From NCBI GenBank assembly GCA_030425825.1, contig JAUHZY010000001.1:838834-902833 (forward strand): a stretch of 64,000 bases of DNA, read 5' to 3'. The position numbers were made by a program, and so were the translations under genes. Shown here in pieces: positions 3,600 to 8,532 of this stretch (positions are counted from its first letter, which is position 1; each line of letters begins with the position of its first letter). This DNA comes from Alphaproteobacteria bacterium (GTDB taxonomy: Bacteria > Pseudomonadota > Alphaproteobacteria > JAUHZY01). The notes under the pieces are model-generated. The model saw only the letters and a program-made list of their open reading frames with translations, had not been told where the DNA came from and did not search any database.

Positions 3600-4631
3600 A
3601 TGAGCAGACTTATTCTAGAAAATATTTCTTTTAAAACAAGCAACGGCGAAACGATCGTCAAAGATATTTCTTTTGATGTTAAACGCGGTGAAACAGTTGC
3701 ACTCCTCGGACCCTCCGGAAGTGGGAAGACATCTACTTTAAGGCTTATTGCGGGGCTGGAAAACCCTTATGGTGGTACTATATCAATTGATGGAAAAGTC
3801 ATTTCCAACAAGATGACGACACTTCCGCCTGAGCAGAGAAAGCTGGGTATGGTGTTTCAAGATTTTGCCCTTTTCCCTCATTTAACAGTTTTAGAAAATG
3901 TTTTATTTGGGCTGAAAGATGCCTCAAAACACAAAAAATATGCAAAGGACCTCCTTCATCAACTTAATCTTTCAGAATTTGTAGACCACTACCCTCATAT
4001 GCTATCGGGTGGACAACAACAACGTGTCGCACTTGCAAGAGCACTTGCCCCCAAACCGAAAGTTCTTTTAATGGATGAGCCTTTCTCAGGGCTTGATGGA
4101 CCGCTAAGAAGGCAAGTCCGTAATGACATGCACAAACTTCTACATGCGGAAGATGTGACAGCAGTTTTTGTGACACATGATGCTCCCGAAGCAGGAATTA
4201 TGTCTGACAACCTTGTTATCATGAATAAAGGAACAATCATACAAACAGGAACAATGGAAGATGTAAACAAGGCACCAGCCAACGGATTCGTCTTTAACCT
4301 TCTTGGGGAAGTGAATAAAATTCCATGTAAGGCTATTTCTGGCAAGGTTGAATCACCCTTTGGCACACTTCCGACAACAAAAGAAAACGGTAATGTGGTT
4401 GTCAGCTTTAGACCTCAAGCCGTACAGGTTGCAGCAAAACAAAAGAACACAATAGAAACACAAATCATTGATAAGCACTCAATGGATGGGTATGTCACGT
4501 TACTGAAAGTTAAGCTGCCTTATGTTGATACACTTATCAATATCTCAACAATGGTAAGAGACCTCCCTGAACGCGGAGAAAAGCTTTCTATTTTTCTTGC
4601 AAAAAAAGATCTTTTTGTGTTTGCAGCTTAA
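3600..4631 (+). CDS. fbpC: Iron(III) ABC transporter ATP-binding protein
   Basis: Walker A GPSGSGKTS, ABC signature LSGGQQQRVALARAL, Walker B LLMDEP. C-terminal TOBE-like extension. Confidence 0.85.
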   Translation: MSRLILENISFKTSNGETIVKDISFDVKRGETVALLGPSGSGKTSTLRLIAGLENPYGGTISIDGKVISNKMTTLPPEQRKLGMVFQDFALFPHLTVLENVLFGLKDASKHKKYAKDLLHQLNLSEFVDHYPHMLSGGQQQRVALARALAPKPKVLLMDEPFSGLDGPLRRQVRNDMHKLLHAEDVTAVFVTHDAPEAGIMSDNLVIMNKGTIIQTGTMEDVNKAPANGFVFNLLGEVNKIPCKAISGKVESPFGTLPTTKENGNVVVSFRPQAVQVAAKQKNTIETQIIDKHSMDGYVTLLKVKLPYVDTLINISTMVRDLPERGEKLSIFLAKKDLFVFAA

Positions 4632-5092
4632 TATTTTTCTTCAAGTTTTTTGCGAATTAAGTGGTCAATAGAGTACTCACCTGCACCGCGCACGATAATA
4701 CGCCCAAGCAAAATTGCCCAGTAAACGTGCTCAACACTGTCTAAATATGTGAACTGGATAACTGCTGTCATGATAAGCAAGGGAATTGCAGCAAAGCGTG
4801 CACCTAAACCTATTAAAAGGAGAACTGGAGCAATTAGCTCTGCCCCTGTCGCCATCACTGCAGCAAAATCGGATGGCAAGAAAGGCACTTGGTATTCTTC
4901 AGAAAATAATAGTAGCGTCGTACTCCAGCTTGTTAACTTGACAAGCCCTGAATGAAAAAAGATGTCTGCAATCCAAATTCTAATGACGACATCCAAAGCC
5001 GGTCTCACACGTGTTTCAAGAACCCTAAATACCGAAAAAACTTTATCTATTGGAAGCCTTTTGGATAAAAAATCTGCGCAATTAGAAATCAT
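4628..5092 (-). CDS. DoxX-family membrane protein (BufD-like member of bufferin-type cluster)
   Basis: 154 aa with 4 predicted TM segments. IWIADIFFHSGLVKL and AAVMATGAELIAPVLLLIGLGARFAAIPLLIM match the DoxX profile. Immediately downstream of the DUF2063 gene on the same strand. Confidence 0.7.
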   Translation of the reverse strand: MISNCADFLSKRLPIDKVFSVFRVLETRVRPALDVVIRIWIADIFFHSGLVKLTSWSTTLLLFSEEYQVPFLPSDFAAVMATGAELIAPVLLLIGLGARFAAIPLLIMTAVIQFTYLDSVEHVYWAILLGRIIVRGAGEYSIDHLIRKKLEEKY

Positions 5093-5099
5093 TTCACAC

Positions 5100-5891
5100 C
5101 TATATGTTAACAGCCGTCACAACATCAATAAAATCTGTTAAGGTCTGTTGTGGATTAAAATCTTCACCAACCTTTTGTGCATCTTCAATCGCTTTACCAA
5201 GCTTCTTATGGTCATATAATGAATTAAGAAACTTAAAATCTGCCTTGTGTAGATGACGCACCTCAACATCCAGCTCAGGGCGCACAATAAAACTCCAACA
5301 AGGGCCATCATCTAAGCTGATCTCCTGTGGAGTATTATCCTGCAAGTTCGCCTGCCATATCTTATGAACAGGATATGGTGAATAAAAAAGACGACTAGAT
5401 GGATGAAACTGGAACCTAAGCTCGCCATAAGAGTCTTGTAAGAAACTTTCAAGATCTGACTTATCTACTGGCTTAGCATCTGCTTCGTGAAAGGCTTCAT
5501 TGATAAGCCACTCAAAACGCCCAACATCCCTTAAATACAATAGCTTTTGCACCTCGGGGCGCACACTAACAAAAGATGGAAAGTCTTCACCAAACTCAAC
5601 AAGGCAACCACTTTTGGGTGGGTTTGAATAAACATATTCATGTGCGACATGCTCAAAATAATCATCACCAACCAAACGCCTTAAAACAGGATAAATTTCT
5701 TTTAGCGCTTCAGTCAGTGTAATAAAAAAATTGTTTTTGTGGATCTGCGTTCGTTCTGCCGCACCAATTTCGTCAGGGTGTATGTGGCTTTCAAATTTAC
5801 TTTCTGTATCTTGTCCCAAAATATGGACATAGAAAGCGGCTTGCAAAACCTCTAAAGGAAGACCAGATGATTTACCATGCTCAAAATTCAT
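5100..5891 (-). CDS. DUF2063-family protein (MbnC/HvfC/BufC-like MNIO partner)
   Basis: LQAAFY...RTQIHKNNFFITLTEALKEIYPVLRRLVGDDYFEHVAHEYVYSNPP matches the DUF2063 N-terminal pattern. Start chosen at internal Met MNFEHG (5891). The 30-aa upstream extension to 5981 looks spurious. Confidence 0.7.
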   Translation of the reverse strand: MNFEHGKSSGLPLEVLQAAFYVHILGQDTESKFESHIHPDEIGAAERTQIHKNNFFITLTEALKEIYPVLRRLVGDDYFEHVAHEYVYSNPPKSGCLVEFGEDFPSFVSVRPEVQKLLYLRDVGRFEWLINEAFHEADAKPVDKSDLESFLQDSYGELRFQFHPSSRLFYSPYPVHKIWQANLQDNTPQEISLDDGPCWSFIVRPELDVEVRHLHKADFKFLNSLYDHKKLGKAIEDAQKVGEDFNPQQTLTDFIDVVTAVNI

Positions 5892-6106
5892 AACCGAAGT
5901 GTAGCGAATAAAAAGAAATGAGACAAATAAATTATTATCCACACCAACCATCATCCAGAACAAGAAACAAATGGAAAACAATTAAGCAAATGATAATACT
6001 AGAAAATATTAAACCCTAACATATCCCAAAAGCACACGCATTGATTGTTTAGAGAAAATGTAGTATACTCTTAGGAAGAACAAAATACTCTTAAGGGAGA
6101 AGTAGA

Positions 6107-7264: not shown

Positions 7265-7289
7265 AGCAGCATTGTCTCAAAACAATTTA

Positions 7290-7326
7290 AAGGGGGCTCG
7301 TCTTAAAGATAAGCCCCTTATTTTTT
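7290..7326 (+). terminator. Rho-independent terminator after HExxH gene
   Basis: AAGGGGGCT..AGCCCCTT hairpin followed by TTTTTTAT. Confidence 0.5.
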
Positions 7327-7426
7327 ATAAAAACATCCAAAACTAAAATTAATTTCGTCTTTTTCTTTGCCTATATTATCGCAAAACTTTATAACTAAAC
7401 CTCAATTAAACTTAAGGAGAAGAGTT

Positions 7427-7675
7427 ATGAAGAAATCTACAATTGCAATTGCTGCTATGGCTGGTGTTTTGGCTGTAATGTCTGCGCCTAAATCTGCTGA
7501 AGCTGGCAAGAACGAAAAATGCTACGGCATTTCAAAAGCTGGGAAAAATGATTGTGCCACAGCGTCTTCTTCTTGTTCAGGAAGCGCTAAAGTAGACAAT
7601 CAAAAAGACGCATGGATTTACCTTCCAAAAGGAACTTGCGATAAAATCGTTGGCAGCAGCAAAGAATCTGCTTAA
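7427..7675 (+). CDS. DUF2282 secreted Cys-containing precursor peptide (bufferin/HvfA-like RiPP precursor)
   Basis: RBS AAGGAGA 6 nt upstream. Signal peptide [26 protein letters not shown]. Core has [15 protein letters not shown]...SCSG...GTCDK with 4 Cys, the DUF2282 signature. Confidence 0.75.
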
Positions 7676-8532
7676 TGCCTCATAAAGTTGACCCAATGCT
7701 GCCAAAAGATAATTTTGTCGGCATTGGTCTTCGCCCCCCTCATTTTAAAGAAATCCTCGAGAAAAAACCTTCTTCTGTTGGCTGGCTAGAGGTTCACGCC
7801 GAAAACTTTTTTGTAAAAGGCGGCCCGTCCCTCCATTATCTTAATAAAATACGCGAAAACTACCCCATAAGCCTTCATGGTGTTGCCCTATCTCTTGGCT
7901 CTCCTACTATTGATGAATCGCACTTAAGAAAACTCAAAAACCTTACTGAAGCCATTCAACCATTCCTTGTTTCTGAACATGTCTCATTCAGCCGTGTGGG
8001 TGATGTCTTTTTAAACGACCTTGTTGCCCTGCCTTATACAGAAGAATCATTAAAGATTATTTGTCAAAACATCGACCACGTGCAAAACGTTTTAAAACGC
8101 CAAATCCTTGTCGAAAATCCTTCACAATATATGCGCTATAAACATTCAACAATTCCTGAACACGACTTCCTCAACGAAATGGTTGAGCGCACAGGATGTG
8201 GTCTTCTTCTTGATATAAATAATGCTTATATCAGCGCAAAGAACTTCGGCCTTTCTACAGAAGAGTATTTAGAAAAGATAAAACATGACCATGTAAAAGA
8301 AATTCACCTTGCAGGACATGCCGTGAAAAAGCTAGACGACAAAAAAACCATTCGAATTGACGATCATGGGTCTGAAGTCTGCGATGATGTTTGGGCGCTG
8401 TTTGAAAACTACATCAAACCCTGCGCCACACCTCCACCTGTTCTTATTGAATGGGATACAGACATACCTAACCTGGACACCTTGCTTGAACAGGCTACAA
8501 TTGCAAAACAAAAAAGCATTCAGAAGCAATGA
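7675..8532 (+). CDS. DUF692 / MNIO (multinuclear non-heme iron-dependent oxidase, MbnB/BufB/HvfB-like)
   Basis: VGIGLRPPHF...LEVHAENF...HGVALSLGS TIM-barrel DUF692 pattern. ATG overlaps precursor stop (TAATG). Confidence 0.8.
   Translation: MPHKVDPMLPKDNFVGIGLRPPHFKEILEKKPSSVGWLEVHAENFFVKGGPSLHYLNKIRENYPISLHGVALSLGSPTIDESHLRKLKNLTEAIQPFLVSEHVSFSRVGDVFLNDLVALPYTEESLKIICQNIDHVQNVLKRQILVENPSQYMRYKHSTIPEHDFLNEMVERTGCGLLLDINNAYISAKNFGLSTEEYLEKIKHDHVKEIHLAGHAVKKLDDKKTIRIDDHGSEVCDDVWALFENYIKPCATPPPVLIEWDTDIPNLDTLLEQATIAKQKSIQKQ

Follow-up and report, generated by a model that had tools for sequence, protein, structure and literature searches.

Bufferins (captophorins) are recently described, very widespread copper-buffering RiPPs. 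The founding Buf1 bufferin cluster is buf1ABCD of Caulobacter vibrioides (CCNA_03363-03366) (PMC11626156). The order bufA-bufB-bufC on one strand has been described as strictly conserved (PMC12452194); such a regularity describes the family without defining the chemistry. The position of the DoxX gene is not fixed in the known loci, since it comes first in the hvf operon of Haemophilus influenzae, and the HvfB-HvfC heterodimer of that system was obtained on co-expression only (PMC11252979). Then, must the oxidase gene and the partner gene lie side by side on a bacterial chromosome? Here, we describe a bufferin system from an alphaproteobacterium whose genome is small (1.66 Mb), found within a stretch of 64,000 nucleotides (hereafter the window, to which all positions refer), in which the two genes lie on opposite strands. 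We take the locus to be a functional Buf1-type bufferin (captophorin) gene cluster, with its four core genes in two divergent transcription units, at a probability of about 0.85.

The cluster spans positions 4628-8532, where a preliminary description of this DNA had placed five open reading frames, all of which are present. On the plus strand, bufA (7427-7675), encoding a Buf1-type (DUF2282) bufferin precursor of 82 aa, is followed by bufB (7675-8532), encoding an MNIO (DUF692) bufferin maturase of 285 aa, and the stop codon of the former overlaps the start codon of the latter as TAATG (7673-7677), which bears out the translational coupling proposed earlier. On the minus strand, 1.8 kb upstream of bufA, lies bufC (5100-5891), whose product of 263 aa is the DUF2063/HvfC_N partner protein (PME-type 1, with an RRE-like C-terminal part). 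Its stop codon TAG (5100-5102) is followed after 7 nt by the ATG of doxX (bufD, 4628-5092), the second gene of the pair, which has the ribosome-binding site AGGTG and encodes a DoxX-family membrane protein of 154 aa; the stop codon of doxX and that of a convergent ABC ATPase gene overlap at 4628-4631. Between the two halves sits an orphan gene of 385 aa on the plus strand (6107-7264), separated from bufC by a divergent intergenic region of 215 bp (5892-6106), which presumably holds the promoters of both bufC-doxX and the orphan. The divergent minus-strand pair and the unrelated gene between the halves are thus all found where they had been reported, and each of the five genes was found only once within the 64-kb window. 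The absence of a nearby regulator or ECF sigma/anti-sigma gene also holds, within about 10 kb on either side, according to the Pfam annotation of L001. The adjacent iron ABC transporter, which had been noted as part of the setting, is indeed present here but is not conserved, being absent in L004, the one relative that shares the layout (see below).

We placed the start of bufA at ATG 7427, behind the ribosome-binding site AAGGAG (7414-7419), and that of bufC at ATG 5891. The longer versions of these reading frames, from TTG 7367 (102 aa) and TTG 5981 (293 aa), respectively, were rejected, because both the independent gene calls on the identical public contig and the L004 orthologues disagree with them.

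The assignment of the locus to the four families was confirmed, with all Pfam scores far above the cut-offs. The precursor matches DUF2282/BufA1 (PF10048) with E 3e-24 (85.2 bits, cut-off 22.4), and the precomputed annotation of the identical gene is PF10048:BufA1 as well. Its N-terminus is Sec-like, with MKK, a hydrophobic stretch of 17 residues (KD15 2.31) and AEA followed by GK, so that residues 1-26 form the predicted signal peptide and the remaining 56 aa the core. The core carries Cys at precursor positions 32, 43, 50 and 71. The four Cys are invariant across the six homologues aligned, together with the EKC.G and DC motifs, even though homologues of 39-59% identity are included. BufB matches the Pfam MNIO family MbnB_TglH_ChrH with E 8.5e-97 (324 bits, cut-off 25) and has the conserved residue at each H, D, E and N position that is invariant in an alignment of 31 sequences; in the PDB, it matches 3bww (DUF692) with E 1.6e-36 and MbnB with E 1.6e-08. 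BufC matches DUF2063 with E 5.6e-21 (75.1 bits, cut-off 27.2), and a PDB search with its sequence gave no match at E up to 0.01. The DoxX protein, in which hydrophobic segments are present, matches Pfam DoxX with E 4e-16 (59.8 bits, cut-off 23.6).

The preliminary description had also attached the label Hvf-type to this cluster. If that were correct, the locus would belong to the Hvf/oxazolin type and encode a virulence-factor peptide with EGKCG repeats as in H. influenzae, rather than a bufferin. The hvf loci do contain the same enzyme, partner and DoxX families, and the NCBIfam models HvfB, HvfC and HvfX all give sub-threshold matches: BufC is matched at model positions 22-221 of 237, covering both domains (42.9 bits, cut-off 142), and the DoxX protein is matched by the HvfX family model (57.6 bits, cut-off 80), it being noted that both models were built for the Hvf branch and that these scores fall below their equivalog cut-offs. 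However, BufB scores 352.2 bits against MNIO_BufB, above the equivalog cut-off of 310, and only 209.7 bits against HvfB, for which the cut-off is 360. Moreover, the precursor is a four-Cys DUF2282 protein in which no EGKCG repeat is found. The precursor sequence and the equivalog scores therefore refute the Hvf type, which has almost no probability left. The predicted signal peptide of Sec type, together with the four Cys that are invariant in Buf1 bufferins, indicates a Buf1-type cluster instead.

By homology to Caulobacter buf1ABCD, the chemistry and copper binding at this locus may be outlined as follows, with the protein roles taken from bufferin systems already described (PMC11626156, PMC12452194). 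BufC, the DUF2063/RRE-like partner, would bind the 82-aa BufA precursor, and BufB, as an iron-dependent oxidase, would convert the central Cys43 and Cys50 into 5-thiooxazoles, while the outer Cys32 and Cys71 would be joined as a disulfide. The precursor would be exported by Sec and cleaved by signal peptidase after AEA26, and the resulting 56-aa product would act as a copper chelator in the periplasm; DoxX would be an accessory membrane protein, dispensable for modification. The computed monoisotopic mass of the core is 5784.75 Da in the unmodified, reduced form and 5774.67 Da in the predicted modified form.

The layout is what sets the locus apart. A departure from the usual colinear order had been pointed out before, and it is clear from the comparison: in 79/79 informative comparator loci, the DUF2063 gene is the next gene 3' of the MNIO gene and shares its strand, and bufC of the window is on the strand opposite to bufA. 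The split layout is rare, being common to one relative only, L004 (PNPase 86% and MNIO 66% identical), where it occurs in the same prfB...pnp neighbourhood, and synteny between the two genomes extends over this entire neighbourhood. The conservation of the layout is thus read from a single genome pair, the window and L004. A search of genome contigs with the MNIO brought up just two relatives, both distant (39-40% identity), and no genome close to this one, and the BufC search of metagenomes found nothing.

Between the window and L004, dS is saturated (above 1). Only dN was therefore compared, and dN/dS ratios are not given because dS is saturated or undefined. The dN values are 0.069 for BufA (88% identical), 0.20 for DoxX (75%), 0.23 for BufC (69%), 0.28 for BufB (65-66%) and 0.88 for the orphan. 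Since dN is low in all four buf genes despite the saturated dS, all four have been kept under purifying selection since the two lineages split.

Because all 79 comparators are colinear, the colinear state is ancestral. The ancestor may have carried orphan-bufA-bufB-bufC-doxX colinearly on the minus strand, and a single ancient inversion of the block [orphan-bufA-bufB] would have produced the present layout, in which bufAB would be under its own promoter, 3' of a terminator-like hairpin, and bufC-doxX would be transcribed from the divergent intergenic region. We infer this scenario from the gene orders; a search for inversion traces, such as repeats at the proposed breakpoints, returned only short matches at chance level.

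Separate promoters for the two halves had been proposed as well, and the predicted elements support them. Downstream of the orphan and upstream of bufA (7291-7330, plus strand) is a hairpin resembling an intrinsic terminator, with arms at 7293-7304 and 7306-7317 and a predicted RNA fold of -16.7 kcal/mol (z -3.46, matched by 0/200 shuffles), which is followed by the T-run UUAUUUUUUAU; the hairpin is absent in L004. Further on, the promoter-like pair TTGCCT-17 nt-TATAAC (7367-7395, plus strand) is aligned with TTGGCT-17 nt-TATAAA of L004, although the intergenic DNA around it is poorly conserved. The consensus scan accepts only T as the last base of the -10 element and therefore missed this putative bufA promoter. 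The minus strand of the divergent region carries the 14-mer AATAATTTATTTGT at 5923-5936, 32-45 nt before the bufC ATG, a spacing also seen in L004, and a sigma-70-like pair TTGATT-17-TATACT (6041-6069) faces the orphan. No inverted repeat was found in 5892-6106, a comparison of the DNA upstream of bufC with that upstream of bufA gave no common operator or motif in either genome, and no Rfam match was obtained over 4400-8800 at E up to 1. The predicted terminator and the -35/-10-like pair conserved in L004 support separate transcription of bufAB and bufC-doxX. Promoter use at the locus would follow these elements, and the two halves may be regulated differently.

What, then, is the gene between the halves? 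Its product is a mostly helical, basic protein with neither a signal peptide nor a transmembrane segment, and it had been introduced as an HExxH protein. HEMIH is present at residues 109-113, but the motif is not conserved: the L004 protein, its only orthologue, has HEVVGHH in its place and no Pfam match even at E 1. The window protein itself gives sub-threshold matches to Peptidase_M91 (19.9 bits, cut-off 25) and SprT-like (17.8 bits, cut-off 25.6), and its structural model, which is of low confidence, yields no significant structural match. With the motif not conserved and no family-level profile or structural match, the identity as a zincin metallopeptidase is not supported. A full HMMER search of 1.84 billion representative proteins finds two members in this family, 27% identical to each other, and a word-indexed protein search with the orphan returns only itself.

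One may suppose that the orphan is a lineage-specific functional component, either a regulator divergent from bufC or a zincin-type protease with the bufferin as its substrate, and that the rearrangement served to recruit it. We consider this unlikely. Its dN is about 3-13 times higher than that of the buf genes, the other buf loci, about 90 in number, have no homologue beside them and none is found elsewhere among the 1.84 billion representatives, a terminator-like hairpin lies between it and bufA, and the motif and the structural model argue against it as given above. As for its shared position in the two genomes, this is expected even without a functional link, given the synteny of the whole neighbourhood. 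A broader version holds that the split itself is adaptive, such that a host-associated alphaproteobacterium with a reduced genome would maintain basal amounts of the partner and DoxX and induce the precursor and the oxidase separately, with the orphan as a lineage-specific bufferin regulator or processing factor replacing the missing SigF/NrsF control; this, too, has a low probability in our estimate. Nothing ties the orphan to the system, and it is probably not part of the bufferin machinery. It may rather be a lineage-specific, fast-evolving passenger between the halves.

It might also be argued that the halves have become uncoupled, with bufC-doxX a remnant or serving another MNIO elsewhere in the genome, and bufAB working without a local partner or decaying. 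Precursors that stand alone have been described, as have genomes in which several MNIO and DUF2063 genes occur, an example being Legionella pneumophila subsp. fraseri (PMC12452194). However, the four buf reading frames are intact and their dN is low in both genomes, BufB keeps all its invariant residues, and in Caulobacter and Haemophilus neither BufB nor BufC is dispensable. In addition, the halves are 1.8 kb apart with no other copy in the window, and a genome of 1.66 Mb argues against the retention of dead genes. A decaying cluster was rejected on the intact frames, the low dN and the invariant residues, and uncoupling as a whole is very improbable. The reading as one functional bufferin cluster in two units is therefore preferred. 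The MNIO and its partner have long been encoded divergently, presumably on separate transcripts, and purifying selection has acted on all four genes throughout; this indicates that bufB and bufC need be neither adjacent in an operon nor translationally coupled for function. The window locus and L004 thus constitute a natural counter-example to the strictly conserved bufA-bufB-bufC order. The locus belongs to a known kind, the bufferins, and its operon layout is unusual; mechanistically, nothing further is new.

Among the known systems, Caulobacter buf1ABCD shares with the locus the DUF2282 precursor (four Cys, and a Sec signal peptide that is predicted here), the MNIO BufB, the DUF2063 BufC and DoxX (BufD), and by analogy two thiooxazoles and one disulfide (-10 Da) in a periplasmic copper chelator would be expected here. 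However, the Caulobacter genes are colinear as A-B-C-D in one operon, while in the window C-D are inverted and divergent from A-B with the orphan between them. The core peptide has 56 aa here and 68 aa in Caulobacter, and the Caulobacter operon is controlled by SigF/NrsF encoded nearby, for which the window has no counterpart within about 10 kb. Orthologous four-gene clusters of these families also occur in Cupriavidus metallidurans and Legionella pneumophila as the gig (gold-induced genes) operons, which metal stress induces (cited in PMC11626156); they are single, colinear and of known metal induction, whereas the present locus is divided into two divergent units. The hvf operon of H. influenzae, HvfX-HvfA-HvfB-HvfC, likewise combines an MNIO, a DUF2063 partner and DoxX, and its precursor has a signal peptide, as is predicted here (PMC11252979). 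It differs in that the precursor is an EGKCG-repeat protein (oxazolin) rather than DUF2282 and that its genes all share a strand, C coming immediately after B, and the MNIO of the window fails the HvfB equivalog cut-off. Methanobactin MbnABC also uses an MNIO, detectably related to BufB (MbnB, E 1.6e-08), and a partner to modify the Cys of a ribosomally made peptide, which thereby becomes a copper ligand; its partner, however, is of the MbnC family, its precursor carries a leader peptide and not a Sec signal, and its product is a secreted chalkophore for copper uptake, formed by oxazolone-thioamide chemistry.

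The five open reading frames (ORFs) of the locus lie as originally read, namely doxX (4628-5092, minus strand, 154 aa), bufC (listed as 5100-5981, minus strand, 293 aa), an orphan gene (6107-7264, plus strand, 385 aa), bufA (listed as 7367-7675, plus strand, 102 aa) and bufB (7675-8532, plus strand, 285 aa). The four protein families named in the preliminary description were all recovered far above the curated Pfam cut-offs: DoxX (59.8 vs. 23.6 bits), DUF2063 for BufC (75.1 vs. 27.2), DUF2282 for BufA (85.2 vs. 22.4) and MbnB_TglH_ChrH, the MNIO family, for BufB (324 vs. 25). 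Among the NCBIfam models, the MNIO falls in the BufB equivalog (352.2 bits, cut-off 310), and it is not assigned to HvfB (209.7 bits vs. 360), ApyH, MbnB or ChrH. With its enzyme below the HvfB cut-off and a precursor that lacks the EGKCG repeat, the locus was rejected as an Hvf/oxazolin locus. Consequently, of the initial label “bufferin/Hvf-type” only the bufferin part is retained, on the BufB equivalog and the DUF2282 precursor.

The starts of two genes were mended. Gene calls on an identical public contig (Logan ERR3428545) begin bufA at ATG 7427 (82 aa, with the ribosome-binding site AAGGAG) and bufC at ATG 5891 (263 aa), and the orthologues in L004, an ENA metagenome contig, match these starts. 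The longer versions with a TTG start are thus artefacts, produced by mechanical calling of ORFs. The proposed coupling of bufA and bufB holds, the stop of one and the start of the other overlapping in TAATG. On the minus strand, doxX begins 7 nt after the bufC stop, and a ribosome-binding site (AGGTG) lies in the gap. Across the 64-kb window, none of the five proteins has a paralogue.

The four-gene set is the core of the Buf1 bufferin clusters (PMC11626156, PMC12452194), a class also named captophorins (PMC13097082). In Caulobacter, BufB and BufC are both required, and together suffice, to convert the two central Cys into 5-thiooxazoles, a disulfide joins the outer Cys (total shift -10 Da), Sec exports the peptide, which acts as a periplasmic copper buffer, and DoxX is dispensable (PMC11626156, PMC12452194). 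By homology, the same thiooxazoles, disulfide, export, periplasmic copper buffering and dispensable DoxX would be expected here. The BufA N-terminus (MKK, a 17-residue hydrophobic stretch, then AEA|GK) is a predicted Sec-type signal, judged by inspection and hydropathy, followed by a 56-aa core with four Cys. Homologues as distant as 39% identity keep all four Cys unchanged, along with the EKC.G and DC motifs beside them. The computed mass of the predicted mature peptide is 5774.67 Da, vs. 5784.75 Da unmodified. BufB, a relative of MbnB and of the DUF692 protein in structure 3bww, retains all the invariant His, Asp, Glu and Asn columns of a 31-sequence alignment.

The arrangement was compared across 91 loci, among them 80 metagenomic MNIO loci from an HMM survey, the best 80 of at least 592 matches by MNIO similarity. 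In the survey, DUF2063 lies directly downstream of the MNIO on the same strand in all 73 loci whose sequence continues for more than about 320 nt past the MNIO; the remaining 7 end too soon to judge. The comparators L005, L006/7, L008-10, L011, L002 and L003 are colinear as well. As the preliminary description held, the window thus departs from the usual order and is a rare exception: L004 aside, 79/79 informative comparators are colinear, a figure that refers to comparators chosen by MNIO similarity and not to all MNIO clusters. Smaller variations were also seen, such as the order BufA-MNIO-HvfC-BufA in L002 (9-2235), a sole BufA about 2.3 kb downstream of MNIO-HvfC in L055 (5962-10263), BufA-like matches in tandem ahead of the MNIO in L030, L037 and L087 (the first match being short in the latter two, perhaps a fragment), and, in L059 (6208-7065), two additional DoxX ORFs some 2.4 kb downstream of its cluster. 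In all six, the partner gene still directly follows the MNIO.

L004 is the closest relative (MNIO 66%, BufA 88%, BufC 69%, DoxX 75% and PNPase 86% identical) and shares both the split and its surroundings, in the order prfB, doxX(-), bufC(-), orphan(+), orphan-like(+), bufA(+), bufB(+), pnp. A single inversion of orphan-bufA-bufB would account for the split, since flipping this segment back puts orphan-bufA-bufB-bufC-doxX in colinear order on the minus strand. Inversion of bufC-doxX instead was rejected, as it would yield the non-standard order C-D-A-B. No repeats are left at the proposed breakpoints, which fits an inversion of great age. Comparison of the window with L004 shows saturation at synonymous sites (dS undefined or above 1), while dN is 0.069 for BufA, 0.20 for DoxX, 0.23 for BufC and 0.28 for BufB, and 0.08, 0.10 and 0.11 for prfB, pnp and rpe. 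Such low dN despite saturated dS shows that selection has kept all four buf genes since the split, and their retention speaks for a working system rather than a decaying one.

Separate promoters for the two halves, as had been proposed, are supported by predicted signals. The orphan stop is followed, ahead of bufA, by a hairpin (7291-7319; -16.7 kcal/mol, z -3.46, matched by 0/200 shuffles) with a T-run behind it, and then by TTGCCT-17-TATAAC (7367-7395); the aligned position in L004 reads TTGGCT-17-TATAAA amid otherwise poorly conserved intergenic DNA. Upstream of bufC, the 14-mer AATAATTTATTTGT stands at an equal distance from the ATG in both genomes. The bufC and bufA upstream regions have no motif in common, and the annotation of the identical contig places no regulator within about 10 kb, in line with the first reading. 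The 190-nt bufB-pnp intergenic region (8533-8722) folds at -56.3 kcal/mol (z -4.5, 0/200 shuffles) and holds a long, very stable hairpin upstream of pnp (8579-8689, plus strand), with a T-run behind and no Rfam match. L004 conserves this hairpin, with changes that are one-sided in several cases and compensatory in a few. It is similar to the autoregulatory leader of E. coli pnp, which RNase III processes, and could also terminate bufAB transcripts.

The host is a small-genome alphaproteobacterium (about 1.66 Mb, about 40% G+C), whose named PNPase relatives, Azospirillum and other Rhodospirillales-type Alphaproteobacteria, are at best 63-65% identical. A three-gene iron-type ABC transporter (SBP, permease, ATPase; 920-4631, plus strand) lies between prfB and doxX; the stops of its ATPase gene and of doxX, which are convergent, overlap by 4 nt (4628-4631), leaving no room for a terminator. 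The cluster is placed between transporter and pnp in the window as described, but this context is not conserved, because in L004 (5483-6795) the transporter is absent and prfB directly abuts doxX. The remaining annotatable window genes are housekeeping. Two adjacent minus-strand ORFs, 12783-13574 (263 aa) and 13541-13921 (126 aa), which the gene calls of the identical contig include, draw no match from Pfam at a threshold as loose as E 1, are absent at that position in L004 and may be further lineage-specific genes. At the gathering threshold, Rfam finds only a 6S RNA (26426-26582, plus strand; 53.6 bits vs. 46.4) and one tRNA (42803-42887, plus strand) in the whole window.

The orphan is a true gene, since it has a full-length orthologue in L004 (pairwise E 5e-25), the only other member found when 1.84 billion representative proteins were searched in full with HMMER. 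It evolves very fast (27% identity, dN 0.88). The preliminary description of an intervening HExxH protein stands as to the gene and not as to the motif: HEMIH becomes HEVVGHH in the orthologue, and the Peptidase_M91 and SprT-like Pfam matches are below cut-off, and absent for the orthologue. In L004, the orphan orthologue is followed by a 270-aa gene (8857-9669, plus strand) that weakly matches the orphan C-terminal half (E 9e-4), including its QK..FWK..P..A stretch, and looks like a partial tandem duplication. The position that the orphan shares in both genomes does not point to a functional link, because it is predicted by their overall synteny; a role in the bufferin system is quite improbable, and we treat the gene as a passenger.

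The locus is thus of a known bufferin kind, with a rare, conserved operon rearrangement. It agrees with Buf1 in every testable sequence-level respect except the colinear gene order, which is descriptive, and its mode of working is assigned, by homology, as like that of Caulobacter buf1ABCD. The hvf loci differ in precursor and in enzyme subfamily; since DoxX comes first in their order, the placement of DoxX was already known to vary. Because the HvfB-HvfC complex was obtained on co-expression only (PMC11252979), the lasting separation of bufB from bufC is mildly noteworthy, though not mechanistically new.
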